Shown here one piece after another: positions 2-38,013 of a stretch of DNA of 64,000 nt. The stretch comes from a virus. A program made the translations under genes and the position numbers. The notes under the pieces were generated by a model. It was not told the origin of the DNA, searched no databases, and worked only from the letters and a program-made list of their open reading frames with translations. How positions within the stretch are numbered: the first letter of the stretch is position 1; each line of letters opens with the position of its first letter. Location: the IMG/VR virus record IMGVR_UViG_3300031951_000037, positions 62,520-126,519 of that record; one strand, given 5' to 3'.

Positions 2-3000
2 GTAGGTAACCTTGCTGAAAACGAAACTTATTATGTTTCTGCAATTCATAACCCTATTCAATTCTCAGTTTCTACAACTCAGGGCGGCCCAACCGAAATC
101 TTGATTAGTGAAACTGTGAGTGCGCAGGGACTAGAATGCTACACTGGTCAACTTGTAGACACTGCTATATTAACTTTAGAATATCCTGGAATTCTAGAAG
201 TAACTACAACACAGGCTACTGTTAACACATTGACTGTTCCAATGTCACCCGTAGGCACTGGTGGAACAACAGGTTTCTATACTAATCTTCCAGTCTTCTT
301 TACTGGGCAGGTGTTTGGTGGAATCATTGAAAATTTGGATTATTATATAACAACTGTTGTTGATAACGAAACTTTCACTATCAGTGAATTCAAAGATCCG
401 GTTATCACAGAAATCTCTGAAACAGTTGCATCAACAGACACTATCGTAGTAGAATCCACAACCGGCTTTGACTTGAATGATCCTATCATTATTACATCGC
501 TAACCGGAACGTTAGCATCAAGTAATATTGAGTCTGGAAGAACTTACTACGTAAGTGAAATCGTCAGCAACACCGAAATGACTATTTCAGAATTGGTTAA
601 CGGAACAGTATTGTCGCTCAATAACGGTACTGGAACTGCAATTCTAACCAATCAAAAGAATACAGTTCAGTTGACTAGCGAAACTGGTTCAATGACCATG
701 AACGTTTCACTGCCTGTAAGTCCAGGACAAATCAATGGTCAGCTATTCACGCTATATCAGACTGCTGGACAGTATCCTGATATCGTTTCTGAAAACTATT
801 CGGACTTGATTGAAAGAACAATTCGTGCTACAATCGGAACGAACTATACTGTTCCAGTTAATAGAATTGCAATCCCAGAATCAGAAGGTGGAACATTTAA
901 TTTCTACGTTAACATGCCATTGCGAGTAAACAGTGCAGTGGGTGGATTGAGTACCGGTGTTACCTATTATGTAACTGAATATTCGGGAGAAGAAATACCT
1001 GATCCTGAAAATCCTGGGGAGACAATAGCACGACCAAACATTCAGGTAGAAGTTAACACTACTTCTTCAGTAGGAAACGTATTAACCTGTGCATACGATG
1101 TAGGAAGAAATCTATTAGGAACTACATCACTATACATCGGTATGCCAATCGTATTCTCTGGAATTGGATTGGGCGGAATTGTTATTGGACAAGAATATTT
1201 TGTTGAAAGCATCGTTAGTTCCACTGAGTTCACTATCTCTGAAACTGATGGCGGCACAGCAAAGACATTATCCACCGCAAACGGTATTATGATGGGTGAT
1301 GGTAACCCATACATCATCATATCTACTAGTAAGGGCGGAAGTGCAGTAGCTTTAACTAATGATACTTCAGCTTCTTCTAGCTTCACTCAGTTTATAACTG
1401 GGACTCCCGAATTCAGTTTGTCATATGTGTTGGGTGGATACACTGCGATAATTACTAATCCCGGTGAAGGCTTTGCAATCAACAATGTGATTACTGTTTC
1501 CGGAACTGAGGTAGGCGGAACAACCCCGGCCAACGACATTACACTAACGGTTAACACAGTAGATGATGACGGCGGGATTACATCTGTAATAAGAACCGGT
1601 ACTCCTCCCGCATCAACGCAGCAGTACTATCTACAGGTGCGCTCAGAAAATACAGTGGCGGTATACAACAACTCATTGATGACTGTTCCGGTTAGCGGCA
1701 TTGCTTTCCCGTTTGTAGGATATACTGAATCAACAGTTACCAATTCTACTACCGATACACTAACAGTAGACACAACTGGATTCAGTAATTATGATGCAGT
1801 ATCATTTAGCGGTTCAATACCTACTGCATTTGATATCGGTGAAACATACTATCTGTACAATGTAACTTCTACAACTGCTCAAGTAACGACCACTCCAAAT
1901 GACGCAGGTACGATTGTTTCTGGAATCACATTTACTGATGATTTTATGATGGCTAAGCTAGGTAGCATCGCATTACTGCCCGAACCATTCTACTTCAATC
2001 AGAGCATTGTCAAGTTTAACAATAGAGTTTATGAATGCGTCATTTCTAACAACGATGACGAATTCATTTTCGGTAAGTGGGAGTTGCTTGATTCAGGTGA
2101 TCGCAGATTGAATGCAATGGATCGTGTAATTGGATACTATCAGCCTACCGTGGACATGCCTGGGGTAGACCTCACACAGTTGTTTGAGGGTGTCACGTAT
2201 CCTAATTCTACATATTTAGGTAATGCTTTCCAACCAAACCAGCAGTATCCTCTTGATACTCAGTTGTCTGACTTGCCATTCTACCCATCTGAGGTAGATA
2301 TTACTGGCATCGTATACGATGGCGAAAAGTATATCTCTAGCGCAAATCTACCAACATATAGTGCTATTATCGGAAGCTTAGATAATCAGAATTGGGGAGT
2401 AGGCAGACTAACTAATAATCCTGTCAACTTGACAGATATTACATATGCGGGCGGAATCTATTTAATGACTTCTGCTAACCCAGCAACTCCTATCTATAGA
2501 AGTACTGACGGTATTTCTTGGACAACAACCGGATACTATACGCCAAATGATCCTTCTACTGCATTGTCAGTTGCGACTATGCCTTTGAATTCAGTAGCAT
2601 ATTGCTCAATGGGTCAGGCTTGGGTAGCAGTAGGTCAGAACATACTTCGCAGCACAGATTCATATCTGTGGGATAAGATAACAGATTTTAATCCTGCATA
2701 CGAATATCAATTAAATGCAATAGCTCCAATTACTGGTACTAATTGCATGGGACTTATTGCAGTGGGTAAGGGTAAAGAGCCAGACTTTTCTAGTGGCATA
2801 GGACAGTTAGTAGATATTAACTTGTTCTTCTACAGCCCAGATAGTATCAATTGGACTCAGGCACCTGTTGTAACTGATAAAGGATTCTATGGAGTTGCTA
2901 GCGACGGTGCTGACATAATCGCTGTAGGTGAGAACGGTGTAATATACTACACTCAAAACGGAATTGATTGGGTAGGTCTAAACGAAGTCAACTGTTTCTT

Positions 3001-6000
3001 CGTAAACTCAGCAACCAACGTATTGAGTGTGACAAATACTGCTGGATTTACTGGTGGCGCATTAGGCACTCCGGTCAGATTCAACAAATCATTCTCTACG
3101 ATTATTGCCGGAACAACATACTACGTCAAGTCAGTTGTGTCAAGTACTCAAATAACATTATCTAATACATTAGACGGAGCTGTTAAGGAACTAGTTAGTA
3201 TTACTGCTGGTGGATTTGTTAATGGTACTACTTACACAATCACCAGCATAGGTACTACAGATTTTACTTTAATCGGTGCAGCTAGCAATACAGTGGGTAT
3301 TAACTTTACTGCAACTGGTCCAGGGTCAGGAACAGGTACTGCAAATATTGTTCGTGGCGACATTATTCCTCCGCAAACACAGATGTATCAGTATAATTCC
3401 CTAGATCCAAATCCTTCAACACTAAGAAGCATTATTTACGCTGGCGGAGTTTGGGTAACAGCAGGCGACGAAGGAACGATCAAGACTTCACCTGACGGTA
3501 TTACATGGACAGTTAGAAATTCAGGGGTAACTCAAAATCTTAATAATATCGCTTATAATGACAACGATTCGTCATTTACTATAGTAGGTGATAATAACGT
3601 AATTCTAGTAAGCGAAGATTTAGGTGTTACTTGGACTGCTACATCTGTATTCACTGTGCCAGAAACAGAATACGATGTTGTCGGTGCTGACTTCTCATTC
3701 GGCTATGCACCGGAAGAATTAGTTGCTGGTGTTGTAAGCGACAACATTTCAATAACAGTTACTACCCGCCCCGGAACAAACTGGCCTGTAGTAGAATACG
3801 GACATACCGGATTTGAAGTAGTTTCATTGGAGTTATTACCAACTGACGGAGAACAGGTAGAATATAGCTTTGATGGTGCGGTGAAAGTTCCTGCACACAT
3901 TAACGTTCAGGTAATTGATGGTGCTACTGATTTGGGAACATCGCTTGCAGAAACAGAATATACTATTGATTGGATCAACAAGTCAATTACGCTAGACACT
4001 CCGTTAGCATTCACCCCTGTCGCTGACAAGCTCAGAATTGATGTGTATGCAGTTGGTAATGGAGATCAACTAGTCAAGGCTAGCACCGATACCAACCCGA
4101 TCAGAACCGATTCTGTAACCGGATTCAATGAAATCTATGTTAACGCAAATTACAGTGCTAGCATATTTGCTGGAAGCGGCGTACTAAGACCTGGCACTGA
4201 CAACTTAAACGTTCGTGTATTCGAAACAGAATCAGTATCAGATAGAATTTTCTGTGACAGCGTGACTAACTTTGTTCTTAACGGTCCTATCACGTTCCAA
4301 GGAATTCCCTTCGGCGGTCTACAAGAAGAAACAGTTTACTATGTGAAGTCTATCAGTTATGCTACCAACGCAATAATTATTTCACCGGTGTATGACTCTA
4401 TTGCAGGACAAGCTGGCCCTGCACTAGAATTGTCTAACGCAACAGGCGAAATGTTTGCTAATATTCAAAACGGCGCGGCATCTGTTTGGTCGGACCCAGT
4501 GGTAGATCACAATGGAACAAAACTAGTATTTGGTTCAACCGGATTAGTAACTCGTGCGAAAGCATCTAATAATGCATTAACAACAGGAACTACTAGTGGG
4601 TTGATTGTAGGGACACCAATCACGTTTGGTCAAGGTACGTTTAGTACATTAGTACCATTCCAAAGATACTATATAAAATCCATTCTTGATGGCAACGAAT
4701 TCACAATCTCAGAAACACTTGGCGGCCCTGAGTTTGCTCTAACAGAGTTCAATGGCACGACCACGTTTGTAACTAACGATTATGCAATCGGTAGGCGCTC
4801 TGATAATCATGCAAAAATTGTGTTTGCTTCTAATCAGTATAACACGGATGTTGATTATATTGTGTTCTCATTGTTTGGAGAAACAAGCCCAGTACAATAT
4901 GGGTATGCATTACCAGAAGTGCAATACTTTAACGGTGATGGCTCAACTGCATCGTTCTACCTTAACAACTTTGTGGGATATGACAATCCAACAAATGCTA
5001 TTGTAGAAATTGATGGAGTGAGAATTACAGCGTCACAGTATACTATTAGTTCAATTTCAAATACCATCTTGTTCAATAGTCCTCCTGCAAATGGCACTAT
5101 CATATCAGTAATGACATATAATGATACAAGCAGACAATATCTAACTAGTCAGTATAATATTACTGGTAATCCAGGCTCATCCCTAATAAGCTTGACTGTG
5201 GGCTCAACCACACACTTTGAAGCCACATATGACCAAGATACCCCAACAGTAATTACGTATGACCAAGATACCCCAAGTGTAGTTGCATATGATGAGGTAT
5301 TAGATTACCTAACATTGTCATCTGGAAGCACGAGTTCATTAAATATCAATGACTCAATAATCTTTGCAGCACCTACGATCGGTGGCATCGTAGCTGGTCA
5401 AACTTACTATGTGACAGAGATCATCAATTCTACTGACTTTGTAATTTCAGAAGACGTTGGTGGACTGCCATTTACAGTAACTACTGATTCTGGATCAATG
5501 ACCTTGCAGGCAAATGGTTTGACTGTTGCCCCGATATCAAACATTGTCAATACTATTGCACCGCCGATTGCAACTACAACTGCGTCTTCATCCACTAGTG
5601 GTTCACCCAACGAAATTACAGTTGATAGCACTAGTGGGTTTATAGTTGGTCAGCCTGTTCAGTTCTTTGGAACATCGTTTGATGCAAACATTGAAACTGA
5701 TGGAACTGTATACTATGTTGATTCTATTGTCAATAGCACTACATTCACGATTGAGGATTATCAAGGTAATCAGATAGTAACTGCTGGCGGCGGCCCTGGA
5801 AATATGCTAGTCGTTGTTGGTGGAAATCCAACAGTACGAGTAACCACAGACATTGAGCATAACTTAGTAGAAAATACTTTGGTTCGTATTGACGGAACAA
5901 CTGGATCTACCCAACTCAACAATAACACATACTATGCTAAGATTATAAATCCATATGTGTTTGACATTTATGCTCAACCATATGACCCGTCACCAACCGC

Positions 6001-7174
6001 AGTCAACGATCCAATCATTGCTATTTCGGCTTACACAGGTGGCGGCTATACATGGAGACAGGGTCTGTTCTTCATCACAACTACTACCGCTACCGCTACC
6101 GCAGTAACCACTAACTTTATTACTGTGGGTTCAACCGAAGACTTGTTCGTAGGAACTCCGGTATACTTTAGTCAGGTTGAAACTAATAACGGAACTGCTC
6201 TCATGGGTGGATTAGACCAAGGCACTGTATACTACATTAAGACAATTGAAAATGCTACCACAATAACTGTTTCTGAAACTAGATACGGTGATCCAGTCAC
6301 ATTAATTAATGATACTGGAAGTATAAATCTAACTCAGTGGGCACAGACCAATGTAGATAGACTTTGGGTAACAATCAATGGTTATCGTGTACCTTCATCA
6401 AGTCTACGGGTAAATGACTTCAACGAAGTAAGCATTTTGTCTGAAATCGTGCCGGGTGATCAGGTAATCATTACTAGCATGATTCCTACAGCAACTCCCG
6501 ACGAAGACATTTACATCAACTTTGTGAATCAGGTTAATGAGGGAACGGTATATCGTATCAATCCTGACATTACTACATGGTTAACTGAACCTGTATACCC
6601 GCTCAGCGAAACAATTTACATTGATGACGTTACTAAAGTAACTCGTCAGGTTGTACAGAATGTCACTACACCAGCTGCAACCTCAGGATTCTATTATATC
6701 GGATTAACCGCAGACAAGAACTTGATTGCTAATGTTAGAGTATTCAACAAGTCTACAGGAAACTTCTTACCACAAGAAGCAATAAGTGTTGTTCTCATTG
6801 ACTTATCTCCCAATGTCAAGATTGTTCCTGGGGCCTACATTACAGCGCCGAATCTGACTTATCTCGGAGACGAGTTGATTATTACTACCCTTGAAGGAAA
6901 CACTGTGTACATTAACGGTGAAGAAATCAGATTCGGTAGCGTAGATTTTGAAAACAATGCGCTAACTGAATTAGGCAGAGGAGTAAACGGGACGGCAGCA
7001 CAGCCATACATAGCTACATACAGTAGAGTATATGGTTTGCTTTCATCCAATAAATTGAATGATATATATTACGATCAAACTTGGAACTCTAAGGTTTACA
7101 ATACAGTAGAGGGTGATCCGTTACAGATTAGTGAAACGGTGCCAGCAGATTTCTTAAATAATCAAAATACCTAA
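2..7174 (+). CDS. Very large virion structural protein (baseplate/tail-associated), 5'-truncated by the window
   Basis: The frame is open from nt 2, upstream of the 101 start in the ORF track. >2390 aa and T/S/G/N-rich, with ~13 copies of a G-x-x-G-x-T-Y-Y-[VI]...F-T-I-S module and a BNR/propeller-like segment (VWVTAGDEGTIKTSPDGITWT). The C-terminal GEEIRF...LGRGVNGT resembles myovirus baseplate proteins. Confidence 0.7.
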   Translation, partial: VGNLAENETYYVSAIHNPIQFSVSTTQGGPTEILISETVSAQGLECYTGQLVDTAILTLEYPGILEVTTTQATVNTLTVPMSPVGTGGTTGFYTNLPVFFTGQVFGGIIENLDYYITTVVDNETFTISEFKDPVITEISETVASTDTIVVESTTGFDLNDPIIITSLTGTLASSNIESGRTYYVSEIVSNTEMTISELVNGTVLSLNNGTGTAILTNQKNTVQLTSETGSMTMNVSLPVSPGQINGQLFTLYQTAGQYPDIVSENYSDLIERTIRATIGTNYTVPVNRIAIPESEGGTFNFYVNMPLRVNSAVGGLSTGVTYYVTEYSGEEIPDPENPGETIARPNIQVEVNTTSSVGNVLTCAYDVGRNLLGTTSLYIGMPIVFSGIGLGGIVIGQEYFVESIVSSTEFTISETDGGTAKTLSTANGIMMGDGNPYIIISTSKGGSAVALTNDTSASSSFTQFITGTPEFSLSYVLGGYTAIITNPGEGFAINNVITVSGTEVGGTTPANDITLTVNTVDDDGGITSVIRTGTPPASTQQYYLQVRSENTVAVYNNSLMTVPVSGIAFPFVGYTESTVTNSTTDTLTVDTTGFSNYDAVSFSGSIPTAFDIGETYYLYNVTSTTAQVTTTPNDAGTIVSGITFTDDFMMAKLGSIALLPEPFYFNQSIVKFNNRVYECVISNNDDEFIFGKWELLDSGDRRLNAMDRVIGYYQPTVDMPGVDLTQLFEGVTYPNSTYLGNAFQPNQQYPLDTQLSDLPFYPSEVDITGIVYDGEKYISSANLPTYSAIIGSLDNQNWGVGRLTNNPVNLTDITYAGGIYLMTSANPATPIYRSTDGISWTTTGYYTPNDPSTALSVATMPLNSVAYCSMGQAWVAVGQNILRSTDSYLWDKITDFNPAYEYQLNAIAPITGTNCMGLIAVGKGKEPDFSSGIGQLVDINLFFYSPDSINWTQAPVVTDKGFYGVASDGADIIAVGENGVIYYTQNGIDWVGLNEVNCFFVNSATNVLSVTNTAGFTGGALGTPVRFNKSFSTIIAGTTYYVKSVVSSTQITLSNTLDGAVKELVSITAGGFVNGTTYTITSIGTTDFTLIGAASNTVGINFTATGPGSGTGTANIVRGDIIPPQTQMYQYNSLDPNPSTLRSIIYAGGVWVTAGDEGTIKTSPDGITWTVRNSGVTQNLNNIAYNDNDSSFTIVGDNNVILVSEDLGVTWTATSVFTVPETEYDVVGADFSFGYAPEELVAGVVSDNISITVTTRPGTNWPVVEYGHTGFEVVSLELLPTDGEQVEYSFDGAVKVPAHINVQVIDGATDLGTSLAETEYTIDWINKSITLDTPLAFTPVADKLRIDVYAVGNGDQLVKASTDTNPIRTDSVTGFNEIYVNANYSASIFAGSGVLRPGTDNLNVRVFETESVSDRIFCDSVTNFVLNGPITFQGIPFGGLQEETVYYVKSISYATNAIIISPVYDSIAGQAGPALELSNATGEMFANIQNGAASVWSDPVVDHNGTKLVFGSTGLVTRAKASNNALTTGTTSGLIVGTPITFGQGTFSTLVPFQRYYIKSILDGNEFTISETLGGPEFALTEFNGTTTFVTNDYAIGRRSDNHAKIVFASNQYNTDVDYIVFSLFGETSPVQYGYALPEVQYFNGDGSTASFYLNNFVGYDNPTNAIVEIDGVRITASQYTISSISNTILFNSPPANGTIISVMTYNDTSRQYLTSQYNITGNPGSSLISLTVGSTTHFEATYDQDTPTVITYDQDTPSVVAYDEVLDYLTLSSGSTSSLNINDSIIFAAPTIGGIVAGQTYYVTEIINSTDFVISEDVGGLPFTVTTDSGSMTLQANGLTVAPISNIVNTIAPPIATTTASSSTSGSPNEITVDSTSGFIVGQPVQFFGTSFDANIETDGTVYYVDSIVNSTTFTIEDYQGNQIVTAGGGPGNMLVVVGGNPTVRVTTDIEHNLVENTLVRIDGTTGSTQLNNNTYYAKIINPYVFDIYAQPYDPSPTAVNDPIIAISAYTGGGYTWRQGLFFITTTTATATAVTTNFITVGSTEDLFVGTPVYFSQVETNNGTALMGGLDQGTVYYIKTIENATTITVSETRYGDPVTLINDTGSINLTQWAQTNVDRLWVTINGYRVPSSSLRVNDFNEVSILSEIVPGDQVIITSMIPTATPDEDIYINFVNQVNEGTVYRINPDITTWLTEPVYPLSETIYIDDVTKVTRQVVQNVTTPAATSGFYYIGLTADKNLIANVRVFNKSTGNFLPQEAISVVLIDLSPNVKIVPGAYITAPNLTYLGDELIITTLEGNTVYINGEEIRFGSVDFENNALTELGRGVNGTAAQPYIATYSRVYGLLSSNKLNDIYYDQTWNSKVYNTVEGDPLQISETVPADFLNNQNT

Positions 7175-7177
7175 GAG

Positions 7178-7184
7178 ATAAATA
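7178..7184 (+). promoter_or_regulatory. T4-type late promoter motif ATAAATA
   Basis: Resembles T4 TATAAATA; 4 nt upstream of ATG 7189. Confidence 0.6.
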
Positions 7185-28719: not shown

Positions 28720-31700
28720 ATGCTTAGAGACGTATTCTATTTTGGTAAAAAGCCCAACGTTCATCCTAGAGAACAGTTTGCAGAGAATCTACAAGATGCT
28801 AGACTAAAAGCCACTACTCGTGACTTTTGGATCATTAATGAGTTCTCTGACTATCGCAATTTTGATTGGGACTTTGATTTTGAATTTTTGCCTGACGAAG
28901 ACGTTTGGGCAGAAGATCACAATAACGTATGGCCTAGTCAGCATCAAAAGGACAGTGGCACATGGTTGTGTCCCAAGGAACATAGTGATGTTATTGTCTA
29001 TCGCAATGATGTAGATCCGGTCATTCGTAAAAACGAAAAGACCGACCAATGGGTCGAGCTTGATTTAATCAACTATAGTAAGTTTGACTTTAGTTGGCAT
29101 CCTGACCCAACTGATCCTCCCTATATCTATAAGTGGGGTTGTAAGTTCTTCCCAACAGAAATCAAGCATGTATTAGAGTATCGTGTTCCTGGCGCTACTC
29201 AAGAAAAGTATATGAACACGATTGCAGAGTTAGTACCTGAATATGATCGTTGGGTAGAACATCAGGCAATTGACAAAGATAGATTTGATATGTCATGGAG
29301 ACCAAATCCATTGGATCCACCATTCATCTATGTTTGGGGTAACAAGTATGTTGACGGAAGACTACAGCCCACACTTGAATATCATGCTCCGAACGCAACT
29401 GATATAAAATATCTATCAGAACTTGTCCCTGTTTTACCTGAACAAGATAGATGGACTATTCTTGAGGATATTGTAAAAGATTCATTTGACTTTAGCTGGC
29501 GTCCTGACCCAAGAGAACCAGCATTCATTTATGTATTTGGTAACGAACAATACGATGGCACAATCATGCCTACACTTGAATATCGTTGCCCTAATGCTAC
29601 AGAAATTAAGTATGTCAATGATATTACGGCTAAATTAGCTCCCAAGAAGGAATTGTTTGAGCATTTAGAAGACAGTTATGGTATTGATTATAGCTGGCGC
29701 CCTAATCCTACAAGTCCTCCCTATATCTATGCATGGGGTAATCAATGGAATAGTCCAGAAGAAAAGATATCTATTCAGTTTGTCGTTCCAGGAGCCACAG
29801 AATACAAATATATGACAGAGCGTGCTATTCGCAAGCCATGCATGGATAATTGGGTAGTCCCTGATGATGTTGACGCTACTGGATTTGATTTTAGTTGGGA
29901 GCCAAACCCCACGGCACCCCCGTACATTTATGAGTTCGCAACACAATGGCAGAAGACCGGCGGCCCTCAGTACGTAGTACCGGGAGCTACGGAGAAACAG
30001 TATGTGGATTTTCAAAGAGTTAAAAGACTTCCTACAAACAAAGGTTGGGCGATTCCTAACAATATTGATATTGATAGATTTGATTTTTCATGGCATCCAG
30101 ATAGTTCTAGTCCTCCTTATGTTTATGTATTTTCTACTCAGTGGGCATTCAGCGGCGGACCTGTATATACAGTTGATGGAGCAACTGAGGTCAAGTATGT
30201 AGAAGATCAGGTTGCTACTGCAATCGTAGATATGAATAATTGGGTATATGATGCTACTGAGATTGATGTAGACAGCTTTGATTTTAGCTGGCATCCACAT
30301 GCAGAAGATCAGCCATATATCTACCAGTTCGGTACTCAATGGCAGAAGACAGGTGGTCCTAAATATATTACTTCGGGCGCTGATAATTCAAGCCCGGTAA
30401 AATATGTAGATACTCGTATTATAAAAGCAATGCGCTTATCCAACCCACATGATTACTATTGGGTAGAAAATTATCCCATTAAAGACTTTGATTACTCATG
30501 GCACCCAGACGATACCGAAGAGCCATATATCTATGTATTTGGTAACAAGCAGTATCCTGCCGAAGAGTGTCCTACTATTGAATATAGAATGGAAGGCGCA
30601 ACTCAGGTAAAATACATTCATGATATCGTAGCTACGTTAGATGTAGATATGACTAACTGGGTAATTCATGAACCAATTGATGAAGACAGTTTTGACTTTA
30701 GTTGGGTACCTAATCCAACTGACCAGCCTTATATCTATGTTTTCGGTAACCAACGTTATTCGGGTGAGATTTATCCCACTGTAGAATATCGTACTCCTAA
30801 TGCGACAGAAAAGAAATATGTCAGTGATGTAACCGCTAAACTTAAAGTTGACAAGTCTAAGTTTACTTTATTATATCCAATAAACGAAGATAAGTTTGAT
30901 TTTAGATGGAGACCTAACCCAATGTCTCCTCCCTATATCTATATCTTCGGTAACCAATATTACTCAGCAGAAGAAATGCCCACTGTAGAATATCGGGTAG
31001 ATGGTGCTACCGAAATAAAATATGTGAAAAATATTACTGCACATTTGAAGTCCAACATGACAAATTGGGAAGTTCCTAGTAACATTGACGTTTCAAGTTT
31101 TGATTTTAGCTGGGTGCCTCATCCCAAAAGTCCTCCCTACATCTATGAGTTTGCAACGGTGTGGAATGACAGGGGCGGACCTAGGTATATCGTCAAAGGG
31201 GCAACAGAATACAAGTACATTGAAGAAATTAAAGCTAAAACATTACCTGATAAAACCAATTGGGACATTCCGAATAATATTGATATTTCAAGTTTTGATT
31301 TTAGCTGGGTTCCTCATCCCAATTCCCCTCCATACATATATGAGTTTGGGACACAATGGAATGACAGGGGAGGACCTGTTTACCGAATGCCTGGTGCAAC
31401 GGAATACAAATACATTGATACTGTAAAGGCAAATACTCTTCCAAGCCGAGTCAACTGGGAAATACCAGACGGGGTAGATGTTAGACGATTTGATTTTAGT
31501 TGGGCACCACATCCGATGGCCCCGCCCTACATCTATCAGTTTGGTACTAAGCTAGATAACAACGACGGTCCTAGATATGTCACGCCTAGCAACAACGGAG
31601 AGATTGTATATCTTGAGCGGGTAGAACTTTTAGGTTCATCTGATATTAGTGTGGGTCAATATTATATTGAAACCAGCTTGGAAGAGTTAATCAATAAGCA

Positions 31701-33672
31701 TCCAAAAGAAATCTTTTGGGCAATGCGAAAGAACATTGACTATTCACACTTTGATTTTAGCTGGCGCCCAACTACTGTGGAAGTTGCCTATGAACTAGAT
31801 TATGTTCATGTTTTTGGTTCTCCTGAATCAGAACTAACACAGACATATTTTGTGAGCGCAGAGCATTATCTAAAAGGTAACACCGAGTTTAAGTTTGTAG
31901 AAGATTTAAAACTAAATGAAGATACTTTGGCTAAACTATTCAAGAAGCCTGATATGTTCTTTATTGACAGAAGCAATAGTGAATCACAAGAGCGGTTTGA
32001 GAAGCTTAAAGAACGTTTCCCTGGCATTCAAAAGACTCGCTATCTTAATAGCTGGGTTGATACTATCAATCGCTGCACTAAGAAAGCAAGCACTGAATTG
32101 ATTTGGGTTCTTAATAGTGAACTAGACTATAGCGACTTTAACTTTGATTACTATCCTAATCCTTGGCAGATGAAGATGGTTCAAGTGTTTGGTACTCAGT
32201 GGAGCCATTGGGGAACAACGTTCATGGTTAACTGCGAAACATTCCCCGAAGATACCAGGTATGTCAAGATTATTGAACATCTATCCAACTTGAACTTTGT
32301 GAAGGATATTCGTACTAAGGCAACACAGTGCGTCCATGATATTGTAGTTATTGACCATGCTAACAAGGAAACAAGTGATGTAGTGTCATTTTTGCAGAGT
32401 AAGGTATCTGACAACACGATTACGGTAATTCCTTATCAAGAGAGCTACCTAGAAACCTTCAAGGAAATTATTAGTAAGCAGCAAGAAAAGAAGGATCATT
32501 ACATTTGGATTTGCTCAAGTGTATGTGACTATACGAACTTTGATTTCTCATATGTGTGTGATCCGTTTGCAAGAGACCAGCTACATGTTTTCCCAAGTGG
32601 AACGCAGAAGTTCGGTGATACTTTCTTCGTAGATGTTAACAAGGCTAGAGAAGTTATCAGTGATCTAGAACTACTAGAAAGCTTCAATAAGGTAAACTAC
32701 AACATGACTATTAGGGCAGAAAGATTGCCCGAACCAGTGATTGTTGTTAATGATGACACGCATTCTACTGCTATTAATAAGATTATTGATTTCCCATACG
32801 CAACACTAGTTACCTATGATAACACTGATGTACCTAAGGTTGATATTGAGCCGATGAATCTTTGGTCTAGCGATACTAAGAATATCTATGTTACTAGTAC
32901 TGGTGCAACTCGTATTGTTGTGCCTGTCGAAGCTAAGGACTATGTTAAGAAAGAATTGTATGAATATCCATACATTAAGCGTGCTCCTAAGTTAGCAACT
33001 TCTAAGCCATTAGATATCGTATACCTAAGTAACGGCGAAACAGGTGCCGACGAAAACTATCAATACTTGTTAGATGTTACTAAGGATCTCCCCAATAGAG
33101 TTGTTAGGGTAGATGGAATTAACGGTCGTGTTGCTGCTTATCATGCAGCAGCAGAGGCTAGCGAAACGACTTGGATGTTCACGGTCTTTGCTAAGCTTAA
33201 AGTCAACCCTAAGTTTGATTGGAACTGGCAACCCGATAGAATGCAGGCTCCTAAGCATTATATTTTCTATGCAAAGAATCCAGTTAACGGATTAACCTAC
33301 GGTCACCAAGCAATGATCGCATATAACAAGAAGCTCACACTTGCTAATGAAGGCAAAGGTCTTGATTTTACATTGGATGACGAGCATGAAGTAGTGCCAT
33401 TGATTTCAGGAACAGCAAACTACAATACTGACGAGTTCTCAACGTGGCGCACTGCATTTAGAGAAGTTATCAAGCTTAAAGCGGATTCTGATGATATAGC
33501 CAAATATCGCCTTGATGCCTGGCTTACTAAAGGGGAAGGTAATTTCGCAGAGTACAGCATTAAGGGTGCGTTAGATGCAGAAAAATACTATGATGATGTT
33601 GGCGGTGACTTTGACATGATCAAATTAAGCTATGAATGGGATTGGCTGCGAAACAAGTTTAATGAAATGTGA
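28720..33672 (+). CDS. 1650-aa repeat protein with C-terminal glycosyltransferase-like domain
   Basis: 13 canonical and ~4 degenerate repeats of ~65 aa (FDFSWxPxxxxPPYIYxFG); C-terminal LSNGE...RVDGINGRVAAYHAAA...TWRTAFRE domain like 15609..16559. Confidence 0.7.
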   Translation: MLRDVFYFGKKPNVHPREQFAENLQDARLKATTRDFWIINEFSDYRNFDWDFDFEFLPDEDVWAEDHNNVWPSQHQKDSGTWLCPKEHSDVIVYRNDVDPVIRKNEKTDQWVELDLINYSKFDFSWHPDPTDPPYIYKWGCKFFPTEIKHVLEYRVPGATQEKYMNTIAELVPEYDRWVEHQAIDKDRFDMSWRPNPLDPPFIYVWGNKYVDGRLQPTLEYHAPNATDIKYLSELVPVLPEQDRWTILEDIVKDSFDFSWRPDPREPAFIYVFGNEQYDGTIMPTLEYRCPNATEIKYVNDITAKLAPKKELFEHLEDSYGIDYSWRPNPTSPPYIYAWGNQWNSPEEKISIQFVVPGATEYKYMTERAIRKPCMDNWVVPDDVDATGFDFSWEPNPTAPPYIYEFATQWQKTGGPQYVVPGATEKQYVDFQRVKRLPTNKGWAIPNNIDIDRFDFSWHPDSSSPPYVYVFSTQWAFSGGPVYTVDGATEVKYVEDQVATAIVDMNNWVYDATEIDVDSFDFSWHPHAEDQPYIYQFGTQWQKTGGPKYITSGADNSSPVKYVDTRIIKAMRLSNPHDYYWVENYPIKDFDYSWHPDDTEEPYIYVFGNKQYPAEECPTIEYRMEGATQVKYIHDIVATLDVDMTNWVIHEPIDEDSFDFSWVPNPTDQPYIYVFGNQRYSGEIYPTVEYRTPNATEKKYVSDVTAKLKVDKSKFTLLYPINEDKFDFRWRPNPMSPPYIYIFGNQYYSAEEMPTVEYRVDGATEIKYVKNITAHLKSNMTNWEVPSNIDVSSFDFSWVPHPKSPPYIYEFATVWNDRGGPRYIVKGATEYKYIEEIKAKTLPDKTNWDIPNNIDISSFDFSWVPHPNSPPYIYEFGTQWNDRGGPVYRMPGATEYKYIDTVKANTLPSRVNWEIPDGVDVRRFDFSWAPHPMAPPYIYQFGTKLDNNDGPRYVTPSNNGEIVYLERVELLGSSDISVGQYYIETSLEELINKHPKEIFWAMRKNIDYSHFDFSWRPTTVEVAYELDYVHVFGSPESELTQTYFVSAEHYLKGNTEFKFVEDLKLNEDTLAKLFKKPDMFFIDRSNSESQERFEKLKERFPGIQKTRYLNSWVDTINRCTKKASTELIWVLNSELDYSDFNFDYYPNPWQMKMVQVFGTQWSHWGTTFMVNCETFPEDTRYVKIIEHLSNLNFVKDIRTKATQCVHDIVVIDHANKETSDVVSFLQSKVSDNTITVIPYQESYLETFKEIISKQQEKKDHYIWICSSVCDYTNFDFSYVCDPFARDQLHVFPSGTQKFGDTFFVDVNKAREVISDLELLESFNKVNYNMTIRAERLPEPVIVVNDDTHSTAINKIIDFPYATLVTYDNTDVPKVDIEPMNLWSSDTKNIYVTSTGATRIVVPVEAKDYVKKELYEYPYIKRAPKLATSKPLDIVYLSNGETGADENYQYLLDVTKDLPNRVVRVDGINGRVAAYHAAAEASETTWMFTVFAKLKVNPKFDWNWQPDRMQAPKHYIFYAKNPVNGLTYGHQAMIAYNKKLTLANEGKGLDFTLDDEHEVVPLISGTANYNTDEFSTWRTAFREVIKLKADSDDIAKYRLDAWLTKGEGNFAEYSIKGALDAEKYYDDVGGDFDMIKLSYEWDWLRNKFNEM

Positions 33673-34135: not shown

Positions 34136-34296
34136 TTGATTGGTCAGGTATGCGTACTGTGCGAAAGCCGACTCAAAAGGAGCGCGGACGCTATCAACGT
34201 TGGGTAAAGTATCTTAAAGATTCTAGACTCACCGAAGAACAAATCCATGAACGAGCAGCTAGATTGACTGAACAGGGTCGGGAGCCTGATCTATAA
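34132..34296 (+). CDS. 54-aa hypothetical protein
   Basis: MIDWSGMRTVRKPTQKERGRYQRWVKYLKDSRLTEEQIHERAARLTEQGREPDL*; ATGA overlap. Confidence 0.55.
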   Translation: MIDWSGMRTVRKPTQKERGRYQRWVKYLKDSRLTEEQIHERAARLTEQGREPDL

Positions 34297-34298
34297 TT

Positions 34299-34466
34299 AT
34301 GGTAGTCTGTAGTTGTAGAAACATTAGAGACTCGCAATACACTAGCAGAGAAGAACTATCTGCCCGCATTTTACAAGACGATTATTGTTGTGGTACATGC
34401 TTAGACGAGTTTTTACCAAACGACAACAAAAAGATTGACACGAACCCCCAACTAGTATATAAATAG
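34299..34466 (+). CDS. Bfd-like [2Fe-2S] ferredoxin (55 aa)
   Basis: MVVCSCRNIRD...CCGTC resembles the Bfd pattern (MxVCxC...CGxC). Confidence 0.55.
   Translation: MVVCSCRNIRDSQYTSREELSARILQDDYCCGTCLDEFLPNDNKKIDTNPQLVYK
34435..34465 (+). promoter_or_regulatory. Composite promoter of the tmRNA gene
   Basis: TTGACA-N17-TATAAA; the -10 element is also a perfect T4 late TATAAATA (34458-34465). Confidence 0.75.
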
Positions 34467-34469
34467 ATT

Positions 34470-34826
34470 ATCAGTTGTTTGATGCAATCTGATGTTTGTG
34501 CAGGACCCGGGGGCGGTACCCGGCGCCTCCACCATTAACACACTTGCCTGACTCCTCCGGTTTTTGGGAGGTAAGTTGGGACCGAACTTCACTAGAGGTC
34601 GTTCTACAGTGCCTTGAGGCATGAGGATACTAACAGAAACGAGTGTGTTAATGATGGGGGCGAAATTTAGGATCGACTGCAAGGCAGAGGTGAGAGTAGA
34701 CTGATTGGTTGGCCGCATATAAGCCAAAACTGTAAATGTCGCAGCTAATGACAACAATGTGGATCTTGCCCTAGCGGCATGATTCTACGGGGTCCGGGAG
34801 TACCTTGCAACAGAAACTCCCAACCA
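34470..34826 (+). ncRNA. ssrA: Circularly permuted (two-piece) tmRNA, alphaproteobacterial type (outer ends approximate)
   Basis: Acceptor piece ends with T-arm CCGGG-GGCGGTA-CCCGG and CGCCTCC-ACCA (CCA at 34532-34534). Coding piece starts GGGGGCG at 34656 and forms the acceptor stem with the G3:U70 Ala determinant. Tag frame 34741-34782 = AANDNNVDLALAA*. 3' motif GGGAGTACCTTGCAACAGAAACTCCC. Confidence 0.95.
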
Positions 34827-34837
34827 TACTAACTATC

Positions 34838-34844
34838 ATAAATA
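34838..34844 (+). promoter_or_regulatory. Late promoter motif ATAAATA
   Basis: 4 nt upstream of ATG 34849; no SD. Confidence 0.6.
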
Positions 34845-34848
34845 CAGT

Positions 34849-37800
34849 ATGGACATTAATGAATTGGAATCCTTTAAATTAAGCGATGCTGTAACTTTCC
34901 ACAAGGAATTGAACCCTAAGTTGTGGGAAGATAATACACTTGATCCAGAAGTGCGTGATCAATTACTATTGATTGCCGAAGACTTTGTAGAATATCTAGG
35001 CATCAGCAATCTTAAAGTTAGAGACGTTACTATCTCAGGTAGTAACGCTGCCTATTCATATACTCCTCACAGTGACTTAGACTTGCACATATTGGTAGAC
35101 TTCAATGAACTACCAAACAACGAAGTGTACCAAGAACTGTTCACTGCTAAGAAAACATTATATAACGATGCCCACGACATTACGGTGCGTGATGTTCCCG
35201 TAGAACTATATGTGCAGGATACAAATCAGCCTCATGTTAGTTTAGGTGAGTACAGCATTGTCTATGACAAGTGGATTCGCATTCCTAAAAAGCGTAGAGC
35301 AAACTTTGACGAAGCTGCAACCAAAGCAAAGTATGAGAAGCTTGGTGACCTTATTGAGTTGGCATTGAAGTCACGAGATCCAAAAAGAGTCAACGATACC
35401 CTCGCACTAATCAAACGTTATCGCAAGAGCGGACTGGAGAAAGCTGGCGAGTTTGGTCCTGAGAATCTAGCATTCAAAGCAATCAGAAAGCAGGGACTGA
35501 TTCAAGACCTACATGACCTCAAAGCACAATTACACGCTGAAAAGTTAAGCATTGACGAATATGCTAACGAAGATTATGATCCAAATGGTCCGCCCCCTGG
35601 ACCCGAGTTTAAGCCTACGATGCCTGCAGGTACTGTCAGAGTAGACGTTAGTGATGTATACGATTGGTACAAGCTAGGTCAACATATCAGCAATATGAAG
35701 GGTTTGGGTAAGCACGATTTCGGTAAAGGTCCTCCCAGCACTATTTTGTCATTCGGTGATGAAGATACCGAACACAAATATATTCAAGATTTAGAAAAGA
35801 CTGGATTGACTACGACTGATATTGATCCAGTTGACCCCAAGCAACCAAAAGGTATGAAGCGTCAAAAAACTGACCCTACATTTAATGTCAATGAGACAGA
35901 CGATAGAAAAGCAGCAGTACTTAAGATTCAGAAACACTTGAATAAGAAGTATGGTGCCAACCTTGACCTTGACGGTAAACTAGGTCCGTTGACTCTTAAA
36001 TCAATCAACAAGTTTATGCCTAGAGCAAAAACTGGATTAGCTGATGAGCCTAACAAGACAACAGCAGTGCAGGGTAAGAAGCTGAAAGAAGCAAAGATTG
36101 ATGCCCATCGTCAGGGTGATACTATTTGGATCAACTACTTTGAGGTTCCTGAGAAAGGTAAAGGACTTGGTACTCAAGAATATATGAAGTTTGAAAAGAG
36201 CCTTCCTAAAGACATAAAGAAGATTCGTTTAGTAGCAAGTGATGCCGGATATGGTCCTACTCACGAGTTTTGGGACAGAATGGGATTTGACTATGCTTAT
36301 CCAGATGATGATAATGAAATGGTTAAGCTGCTAGAAGCCGTCAAGTTCAAAGTACAAAAGGGCAAGAATAAATTCTCTACTGAATTATTAGTAAGCGGTG
36401 AACCTGTTGGTATATATCAATACGATGCTACTACTGGACGCAGTATTGCCGAAATTTATCCTGAGTTTAAGGGCAAGGGTTTAGGTAAACTATTAGTCTT
36501 ACACGCTATCTATACCGCTGCACAATTAGGTCTTGATTTTATAGAAGATGATTCACGAACCGCAGAATATGATAACGTATTAGATAGCCTAAGCAGCAAT
36601 GGTTATATAGTAGATGATGATGGATATTGGTATGTCACAGGTGACGGAGAACAATATCTGAAACAATCATTAAAAGAAGCCCACCTGGTAGAAACCGCAG
36701 AGGAAAATCAAATTATCAATGCAGTTTCTAGAGCAGCCGCTGATAAAATTGTCGAGTTCATGCAAGCGAATGAAAGCAAGATATTGGATATGTTATTGGT
36801 AGGCATGACTCCCAAAACTCGTCTAATATTATTTGGTTTAAAACCAAAAGACCTAAATGTTCCCTCAGTGAAAGACCCGCTACTCAATAAATTATTAAAA
36901 ACTATGAAAATTAAAGTCAGTACCTATAAGAATTGGAAAAACGAAAAAGATACAAAGATTTATGGAGAATACTATGAGGGTGATAACAGTATTTTACTTT
37001 ATTTCCCGGCTCATGAACTTGCTGCTAAAATACGAGGAACAACCATTCAATCCGAGGTTGCCAGTACATTATCACATGAAATTCAACATGCGCTTGACGA
37101 TTTAAAAAGTCAGGGCAAGGCACTAGCAGATCCTATATTATACAAAGGAATGAGTAACGATTATCAATCATATCTTAAAAGACCATATGAAGTGAATGCT
37201 AGATTCCAACAAGCAACTATGGACATAGCAGAATATGTAGCTATGCCAAAGAAAGATGGTAGCAAGGCTACACAGAAAGATTTGCCGGAACTAATTCGTT
37301 ACGCATTTGAAAAAAATCAATTAGATAAAATCTACGAGAAAAATCAAAAAGAATATAAGAGATTATTGTCTCGTGCTTATAAGTTCTTCCAAGCTGAAAT
37401 GAATGCTCCTAAGAAAGCAACTCCTCAAAATATAGTGAGTAGAGCAGTCAATTGGATAATGGGTAATTCCACAAAAGAAATTAATGAGGCTTCCGGATAC
37501 ATTCCAAGCGAAAAAGAGAAGAATGATCCTCGCTTCAAGACTGCACTGACTGTAGACGTTAAGCCAGACTCAATCAAGAAGAATGCTAAGGCGTTCAACT
37601 GGAAAACCTCACGAGCAGGCATCCCTCCCCAAGCACGAGCAGATGGTAAGCTTGCGGAAGACCTAATGAGAGAGTTTAAAAGTTTTTTACTTGAAGATAA
37701 GCAGCCCAAAGTAGGTTATCACGTTACTGCTACAAAAAACTTACCAGTCATACGTAAGAACGGAATCAAAGCAGATAGCAGAGGCAATAGCTATGTTTGG

Positions 37801-38013
37801 GATTCGTTTGAAATGGCTGAATGGTTCACCGACTTTCAGAACGATGAGGGTCAAGATAGAACGATATTGAAAATAGATATGACAGGCATTGATGCCCGCC
37901 CCGATCCAGAAGCCGAAGACATGAGCGAATGGTCAAGTAGATTTAAGCCCGGCACGAACGGCGGCGCTTGGATAGTAACAGGTTCTATTCCACCGGACAA
38001 AATCATAGGTTGA
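34849..38013 (+). CDS. Polyvalent protein: Pol-beta nucleotidyltransferase, unknown domain, PG-binding-like, 2x GNAT, zincin, ART-like
   Basis: SGS...DLDLH; IQKHLN...DGKLGPLT; KGKGLGT...FWDRMGF; FKGKGLGK; HEIQH; YHVT...SYVW. Confidence 0.75.
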   Translation: MDINELESFKLSDAVTFHKELNPKLWEDNTLDPEVRDQLLLIAEDFVEYLGISNLKVRDVTISGSNAAYSYTPHSDLDLHILVDFNELPNNEVYQELFTAKKTLYNDAHDITVRDVPVELYVQDTNQPHVSLGEYSIVYDKWIRIPKKRRANFDEAATKAKYEKLGDLIELALKSRDPKRVNDTLALIKRYRKSGLEKAGEFGPENLAFKAIRKQGLIQDLHDLKAQLHAEKLSIDEYANEDYDPNGPPPGPEFKPTMPAGTVRVDVSDVYDWYKLGQHISNMKGLGKHDFGKGPPSTILSFGDEDTEHKYIQDLEKTGLTTTDIDPVDPKQPKGMKRQKTDPTFNVNETDDRKAAVLKIQKHLNKKYGANLDLDGKLGPLTLKSINKFMPRAKTGLADEPNKTTAVQGKKLKEAKIDAHRQGDTIWINYFEVPEKGKGLGTQEYMKFEKSLPKDIKKIRLVASDAGYGPTHEFWDRMGFDYAYPDDDNEMVKLLEAVKFKVQKGKNKFSTELLVSGEPVGIYQYDATTGRSIAEIYPEFKGKGLGKLLVLHAIYTAAQLGLDFIEDDSRTAEYDNVLDSLSSNGYIVDDDGYWYVTGDGEQYLKQSLKEAHLVETAEENQIINAVSRAAADKIVEFMQANESKILDMLLVGMTPKTRLILFGLKPKDLNVPSVKDPLLNKLLKTMKIKVSTYKNWKNEKDTKIYGEYYEGDNSILLYFPAHELAAKIRGTTIQSEVASTLSHEIQHALDDLKSQGKALADPILYKGMSNDYQSYLKRPYEVNARFQQATMDIAEYVAMPKKDGSKATQKDLPELIRYAFEKNQLDKIYEKNQKEYKRLLSRAYKFFQAEMNAPKKATPQNIVSRAVNWIMGNSTKEINEASGYIPSEKEKNDPRFKTALTVDVKPDSIKKNAKAFNWKTSRAGIPPQARADGKLAEDLMREFKSFLLEDKQPKVGYHVTATKNLPVIRKNGIKADSRGNSYVWDSFEMAEWFTDFQNDEGQDRTILKIDMTGIDARPDPEAEDMSEWSSRFKPGTNGGAWIVTGSIPPDKIIG

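Follow-up and report, generated by a model that had tools for sequence, protein, structure and literature searches.

A circularly permuted, alphaproteobacterial-type tmRNA gene in a large myophage related to jumbo phages

A 64,000-nt stretch of viral DNA (the window), which forms the second half of a 126.5-kb IMG/VR contig, was found by Rfam covariance models and ARAGORN to carry a circularly permuted tmRNA gene at positions 34470-34824 of the plus strand. The locus is very probably an ssrA gene that functions in a large myophage of lytic type and would specify a two-piece tmRNA of alphaproteobacterial type. All sequence-level hallmarks of the two-piece tmRNA family were detected in this gene, and its structure and tag were found to be maintained in related phages.

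The Rfam alpha_tmRNA model matched the locus at 96.8 bits (gathering score 50, E 3.9e-25) over 34431-34824 and model positions 1 to 355, and the tmRNA_permuted model covered 34470-34782 at 73.3 bits (gathering score 47, E 3.6e-12). Both covariance models (RF01849 and RF04321) matched end to end in the permuted order, in which the acceptor (3') piece precedes the coding (5') piece. Within the tmRNA clan, the alpha model provided the best match and was kept over the one-piece, beta and cyano models, a comparison that the earlier note had proposed. The only gene called by ARAGORN in the window was a permuted tmRNA, for which it gave the tag VAANDNNVDLALAA. With scores above both gathering thresholds and this ARAGORN call, the match is far beyond chance, and the assignment made in the earlier note, a permuted two-piece tmRNA of alphaproteobacterial type, was borne out. 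That note had also predicted that annotation programs would miss the gene, which was not the case, as both ARAGORN and Rfam detected it. The ARAGORN tag carries an extra leading Val, and the program placed the 5' tRNA-like half within the segment that separates the two pieces. Placement of this half at 34656, as originally proposed from the letters of the sequence, is favoured over that of ARAGORN and is supported by the covariance models and covariation data.

The acceptor piece (34470-34534), as delimited by Rfam alignments, consensus fold and pair counts, includes the 3' strands of the long P2 helices, the T-arm, the 3' acceptor strand, the discriminator A and an encoded CCA. Its T-arm has 5 bp (34507-34511 with 34519-34523) and a 7-nt GGCGGTA loop (34512-34518), and is followed by the 3' acceptor strand and ACCA (34524-34534). 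An intervening segment of 121 nt (34535-34655) lies between CCA and G1. The coding piece (34656-34824), supported by Rfam alpha_tmRNA and covariation, holds the 5' acceptor strand, the D-loop analogue that represents the SmpB-binding region, the 5' P2 strands, the tag frame and a 3' hairpin. The 5' acceptor strand (34656-34662) forms seven pairs with 34524-34530, including G3:U70, and the D-loop analogue located 3' of this strand agrees with the Rfam consensus. By these analyses, every coordinate and pairing initially described for the acceptor stem, the 121-nt gap, the T-loop and ACCA was found to hold. In the consensus fold, the P2 helices pair 34470-34476 with 34699-34705, 34487-34497 with 34682-34691, and TGCAG (34499-34503) with CTGCA (34677-34681), the last of which had been noticed beforehand and was recovered independently in the fold of the relatives. 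A small hairpin (34767-34779) spans the last tag codons and a larger one (34796-34821) closes the 3' end of the coding piece; no U-tract terminator was found after the latter.

The surroundings of the gene are those of a phage. The contig is estimated by CheckV to be 36% complete, thus suggesting a genome of roughly 350 kb; nearly all of its long ORFs are on the plus strand, and the G+C content of the window is about 41%. Genes for a carbamoyltransferase, a MoxR-like ATPase, a VWA/metallopeptidase protein, virion proteins and a T4-type large terminase are found nearby. The large terminase is closest, at about 50% identity, to its counterparts in the jumbo myophages Sinorhizobium phage Phosso, Pseudomonas phage PA5oct and Agrobacterium phage Atu_ph07. 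No integrase was detected in the 126-kb contig, nor was any tRNA detected in these 126 kb by ARAGORN. The lack of smpB previously noted for the window was confirmed and extended, as none was found in the contig (36% complete) or in five related fragments that are 7-36% complete, and neither an ArfB/RF-1 domain nor a class-II CCA-adding enzyme was detected in the contig at this level of completeness. Host SmpB and alanyl-tRNA synthetase (AlaRS) are presumably used by the phage tmRNA. Two very large plus-strand ORFs were also observed in the window, at 2-7174 (at least 2390 aa) and 28720-33672 (1650 aa), of which the 1650-aa ORF had no Pfam or PHROG match.

Immediately downstream of the tmRNA gene on the plus strand (34849-38013) is a gene for a 1054-aa protein of phrog_36119, a family with no function assigned. 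The first ~230 residues of this protein bear a Pol-beta-type nucleotidyltransferase signature with a GS-x10-DLD motif, and the remainder is Lys/Glu-rich. The match to Pfam NTP_transf_2 (E 0.022) was below cut-off, and PF01909 was present in 22-45% of the members of the Atlas neighbour clusters. Adjacency of the two genes is not strict, as another gene lies between them in some relatives. If the 1054-aa protein is an RNA 3'-end-modifying enzyme, its location beside a tmRNA gene would be of interest.

At least 15 related contigs, both viral and metagenomic, carry the same tmRNA gene. When the downstream 1054-aa gene was used as query, 12 related viral contigs were retrieved, most of which have the tmRNA gene just upstream; an exact 38-mer from the tag region retrieved 12 viral contigs and a 27-mer retrieved 11 metagenome contigs. 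An identical neighbourhood was present in more than 12 independent viral contigs, and synteny was also observed in the metagenome contigs. Nine distinct family members were aligned and pair types were counted on the consensus fold. By this approach, double compensatory changes were detected in 10 of the 56 consensus pairs, five of them in the hairpin at the 3' end of the coding piece. For the acceptor stem, three versions that compensate one another were observed, with covariation at positions 4-6, and G3:U70 is invariant in the nine relatives and two outgroups. One double compensatory pair and several wobble-preserving changes were found in the P2 helices. Together with the retention of the tag described below, these compensatory changes mark the locus, as judged by comparative analysis, as a selected, working gene rather than an assembly artefact, host contamination or the relic of an attachment site. 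Identity, structure, phage context and purifying selection are thereby demonstrated for the tmRNA gene. It is missing from at least one 103-kb relative (G003), from Atu_ph07 and from PA5oct, and is thus dispensable for the lineage. One metagenome contig (L174, Ga0007819_1015820) has the same tag family with a canonical TTCGATT-type T-loop rather than GGCGGTA, a different P2 region and its own intervening segment of ~100 nt.

The tag frame (34741-34779, stop at 34780-34782), which was also called by ARAGORN, encodes AANDNNVDLALAA, a tag of 13 residues that starts with Ala and ends in the hydrophobic LAA degron, confirming the degron reported earlier. By analogy to the tmRNA of E. coli, GCA at 34741 is most likely the resume codon, and GTC (34738-34740) would then be the -1 triplet. 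Throughout the family the tag peptide is AANDNNV(D/E)LALAA, either identical or with D changed to E in every member; all other changes are synonymous, and the stop codon alternates between TGA and TAA. In the more distant tmRNAs of phage Phosso and contig L178, the ANDN start and LAA end are kept and the middle of the tag differs. The hairpin over the last tag codons includes a covarying pair, 34770:34776, which is C-G, G-C or U-A depending on the relative and occupies the third positions of two Ala codons. Since this RNA hairpin explains part of the synonymous variation of the tag, the argument that the peptide itself is selected comes mainly from those other codons that stay invariant and from the D/E change.

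A promoter-like region (34435-34465) was identified just upstream of the acceptor piece, in which a -35 hexamer (34435-34440) and a -10-like hexamer (34458-34463) are separated by a spacer of 17 nt. Both hexamers are kept in the window and in four relatives (L002, L005, L006 and L015), and the sequence of the 17-nt spacer varies; this pattern provides good comparative evidence for a putative sigma-70-type promoter. The start predicted ~7 nt downstream falls on 34470, the base at which pairing in the RNA begins. The -10 element was absent from a consensus promoter scan because its usual final T is missing. An ATAAATA core (34459-34465) overlaps the -10-like hexamer. On the plus strand of the contig this core occurs in 14 copies (12 intergenic), mostly 11-54 nt before a start codon, and virion genes are among those preceded by it; examples in the window are at 7178, 10988, 27090, 47078, 47837, 50281 and 53512. 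A second core near the tmRNA gene (34838-34844) precedes the following gene by 11 nt and is kept in six of seven relatives. Judged from this distribution, ATAAATA is likely to be the core of the phage's own late-type promoter. The full T4 late octamer was present once in the window compared to about five copies expected by chance and was rejected as a general signal, the recurrent motif being the shorter ATAAATA core. Thus, the composite early/late promoter suggested in the earlier note is plausible and partly supported, in so far as the conserved -35 and -10-like hexamers and the recurrent core agree with it.

The intervening segment varies among relatives. In the window, the 121 nt are predicted to fold stably into several hairpins (-44.8 kcal/mol, z -4.4) enclosed by a stem of 12-13 bp whose first base is the A of CCA. 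The segment is presumably removed in maturation. No known self-cleaving ribozyme or other Rfam family was detected within it by Rfam. Near-identical tmRNA genes were found to have unrelated inserts, or none, between CCA and G1: several relatives have a spacer of only 5 or 9 nt, and the others have spacers of 70 nt (L176), 127 nt (L002 group), 143 nt with a small ORF inside (L171), about 150 nt (L170), 295 nt with an 88-aa ORF inside (L025) and 410 nt (Phosso). All long spacers are stem-closed, from the A of CCA to a few bases before G1, and the stem covaries. Alpha-type tmRNA genes on at least 62 other IMG/VR contigs share this layout. It was rejected as a phage novelty, as bacterial alpha tmRNA genes share a stem-closed segment and a short leader before G1; the spacers of the 80 bacterial genes sampled are 5-80 nt, compared to 121 nt in the window gene. 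Stem-closed inserts are also known from the 23S rRNA of bacteria, where intervening sequences that fragment the rRNA are sporadic and variable, are excised without re-ligation and in some cases contain ORFs. The phage spacers resemble these elements in each of these aspects of layout and occurrence, including the ORFs (L025 and L171), and differ from them in that the RNA is another one and that tmRNA was already split by descent. Excision of the tmRNA spacer by RNase III would be in line with this likeness.

Only one homologue of the 121-nt segment was found, in the different phage tmRNA of contig L178, where it is 85% identical, five pairs show compensatory changes and no pair is broken. Between the two genes, identity is 74% for the acceptor and coding pieces and 85% for the spacers, a comparison of two sequences in which selection and recent transfer are inseparable. 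A repeated mobile element was considered and rejected, as no other copy of the segment was present in the 126-kb contig or the fetched loci; elsewhere it was found in only one other viral contig, again within a tmRNA gene. Because the L178 spacer outlasts the tmRNA pieces in identity and near-identical genes swap inserts, the segment may be a structured RNA under selection of its own, carried within the tmRNA precursor and freed when the pieces separate. We consider this reading tentative and, on balance, doubtful. An RNA freed in this way could act as a small RNA in regulation, bind a protein as a decoy or guide processing, and the split site of the tmRNA in this phage lineage would then be a slot into which cargo, small ORFs included, is swapped. 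The 88-aa ORF of L025 (IMGVR_UViG_3300032235_000595, 5724-5990, minus strand) encodes a basic protein and has a ribosome-binding site; neither it nor the small ORFs upstream of the tmRNA gene had a significant match in Pfam or PHROG. The ORF in the L171 spacer is about 45 aa, with no significant family match. A Bax-inhibitor-1 family membrane protein and two tRNAs were also observed near the tmRNA of L025. That the insert at the split site is variable and sometimes conserved adds a modest new point on the evolution of permuted RNA genes.

From the structure of the gene we infer that the tmRNA is expressed, processed, charged and used with host SmpB to the benefit of the phage, most probably in conventional trans-translation that relies on factors of the host. 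The sigma-70-like promoter overlapping ATAAATA would drive a single precursor that starts near 34470, from which host RNases would excise the 121-nt stem-closed segment. RNase P would cut at G1 (34656), and 3' trimming would proceed back to the encoded CCA, leaving an acceptor piece (34470-34534) and a coding piece (34656 to about 34824) that would remain paired through the acceptor stem and P2. Host alanyl-tRNA synthetase would charge the molecule through G3:U70, and host SmpB and EF-Tu would bring it to ribosomes stalled on broken messages, which are expected to be plentiful once the phage degrades host mRNA. Translation would resume on the tag frame, append the tag and terminate, thus freeing the ribosome and marking the tagged fragment for ClpXP-type proteolysis. 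The phage would gain free ribosomes and recycled amino acids as host transcription, and hence the supply of host tmRNA, falls. A role in replacing RNAs cut by defence nucleases, as raised in the earlier note, is speculation.

A working tmRNA was weighed against three other explanations. One is that the RNA acts as a decoy or re-router, which titrates host SmpB or competes with host tmRNA and either damps host quality control or gives stalled products a fate chosen by the phage, as its main role in place of a simple boost to rescue capacity. There is a precedent in mycobacteriophage DS6A, where a molecule consisting of the tRNA-like domain only was proposed to inhibit tmRNA by SmpB titration (PMC4131195), and such a role would fit with the lack of SmpB in the fragments examined and with a tag unlike any bacterial tag among about 185,000 species representatives. 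A pure decoy, however, would need no complete and conserved tag frame, no ANDN start or LAA end, no G3:U70 and no full coding piece, all of which are present here, and we regard this explanation as improbable. An even smaller chance is assigned to a passenger, a host ssrA without a role that was acquired by recombination or from an ancestor that integrated, or the remnant of an attachment site. Although ssrA is a favoured site of integration, with fragments found in temperate phages (PMC9004378, PMC4131195), and the tmRNA is absent from some relatives, the gene is complete rather than a 3' fragment, no integrase was found in the 126 kb and compensatory changes maintain the gene across diverged relatives. 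The lack of a close counterpart in the bacterial genomes sampled also argues against recent capture.

The explanation that the locus is host DNA, brought in by chimeric assembly or as a prophage flank, could find support in the G+C content of the tmRNA segment (about 49% compared to about 41% for the window), yet elevated G+C is normal in structured RNA genes. The same gene and phage neighbourhood recur in contigs from numerous separate samples, and two of these contigs exceed 100 kb. The gene is flanked on both sides by phage genes on the same strand. This explanation is effectively refuted by synteny, in agreement with the view of the earlier note that host contamination was not to be expected given the phage flanks, and we assign it a negligible probability. 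A functional phage tmRNA is thus the reading that we retain.

The tmRNA was also used in an attempt to identify the host. No match to the window tag was found among about 185,000 species representatives. In 80 alphaproteobacterial genomes with ANDNN tags, only the universal core matched the window tmRNA, and a BLAST search with the coding piece against 400 sampled Alphaproteobacteria returned short conserved patches and no close homologue. Neither tag nor sequence thus led to a host, as close bacterial homologues were lacking among the genomes searched. An alphaproteobacterial host is consistent with the type of tmRNA and with the host of Phosso, and is only a lead; PA5oct is an equally close relative by terminase, and the Methylophilales phage Melnitz provides an example of an alpha-type tmRNA in a phage of a non-alpha host (PMC9004378).

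Related genes were detected in cultured phages. The 469-kb Sinorhizobium phage Phosso (L030) has an alpha-type permuted tmRNA (PV764938.1, 349553-350242, minus strand; 108 bits) with the tag ANDNVSTKVALAA and the 410-nt intervening segment, and its GenBank record has no feature there. Rhodobacter phage RcRudolph (L031) has a complete permuted alpha-type tmRNA (OP009285.1, 49090-49454, minus strand; 94.8 bits) with a 98-nt intervening segment, over which GenBank has a hypothetical-protein CDS, RCRUDOLPH_61. A match similar to that of RcRudolph was observed in RcSimone-Hastad. Thus, this type of gene is mishandled in practice, as the 5' half is misplaced by ARAGORN and the Phosso and RcRudolph records are unannotated or mis-annotated. 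With the unannotated copy in the cultured Phosso, what a phage tmRNA does during infection can be addressed directly in a host amenable to experiments. Phage-borne two-piece tmRNAs now reach beyond the marine pelagimyophage-type phages to a jumbo lineage with a cultured member; the current picture of trans-translation is unchanged.

Phage tmRNAs have been known since those of the Bxz1-type mycobacteriophages and phage G (PMC4131195). Like the window phage, Bxz1-type (cluster C1) phages and Bacillus phage G are large myophages that carry a tmRNA, together with translation-related genes (PMC4131195). Their tmRNAs are one-piece and usually found beside many tRNAs, whereas the window gene is permuted and lies in 126 kb free of tRNA genes. 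The two-piece tmRNA of Caulobacter crescentus (Keiler, Shapiro and Williams 2000, cited in PMC9004378; RF01849) has the same gene order, a GGCGGUA-type T-loop and a tag with an AANDN start and an AA end, as in the window gene. By contrast to the bacterial gene, the window gene is phage-borne, and close similarity between the two is confined to the universal tRNA-like core.

The closest known system is that of Melnitz and the pelagimyophages, in which Buchholz et al. (2022) described a complete two-piece alpha-type ssrA and no SmpB (PMC9004378); among 133 unique phage tmRNAs, 53 unique two-piece genes were counted, mostly in aquatic phages (PMC9004378). A glutamine riboswitch, as in Melnitz, was considered for the window locus and rejected, since Rfam detected only tmRNA, both in the window at gathering scores and in 34200-35000 at E up to 10. 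As in the window, the ssrA of these phages is complete, permuted and of alpha type, and is carried by lytic myophages with a T4-like terminase and promoter logic; it is likewise located behind an early-type promoter, with no SmpB reported, and present in only some members of the group. The window phage, however, belongs to another lineage, with a terminase nearest to those of jumbo phages at about 50% identity, and compared to Melnitz its tag differs and its spacer is long and variable. Two-piece alpha-type phage tmRNAs are therefore already published, and the window gene adds a jumbo-phage lineage to them.
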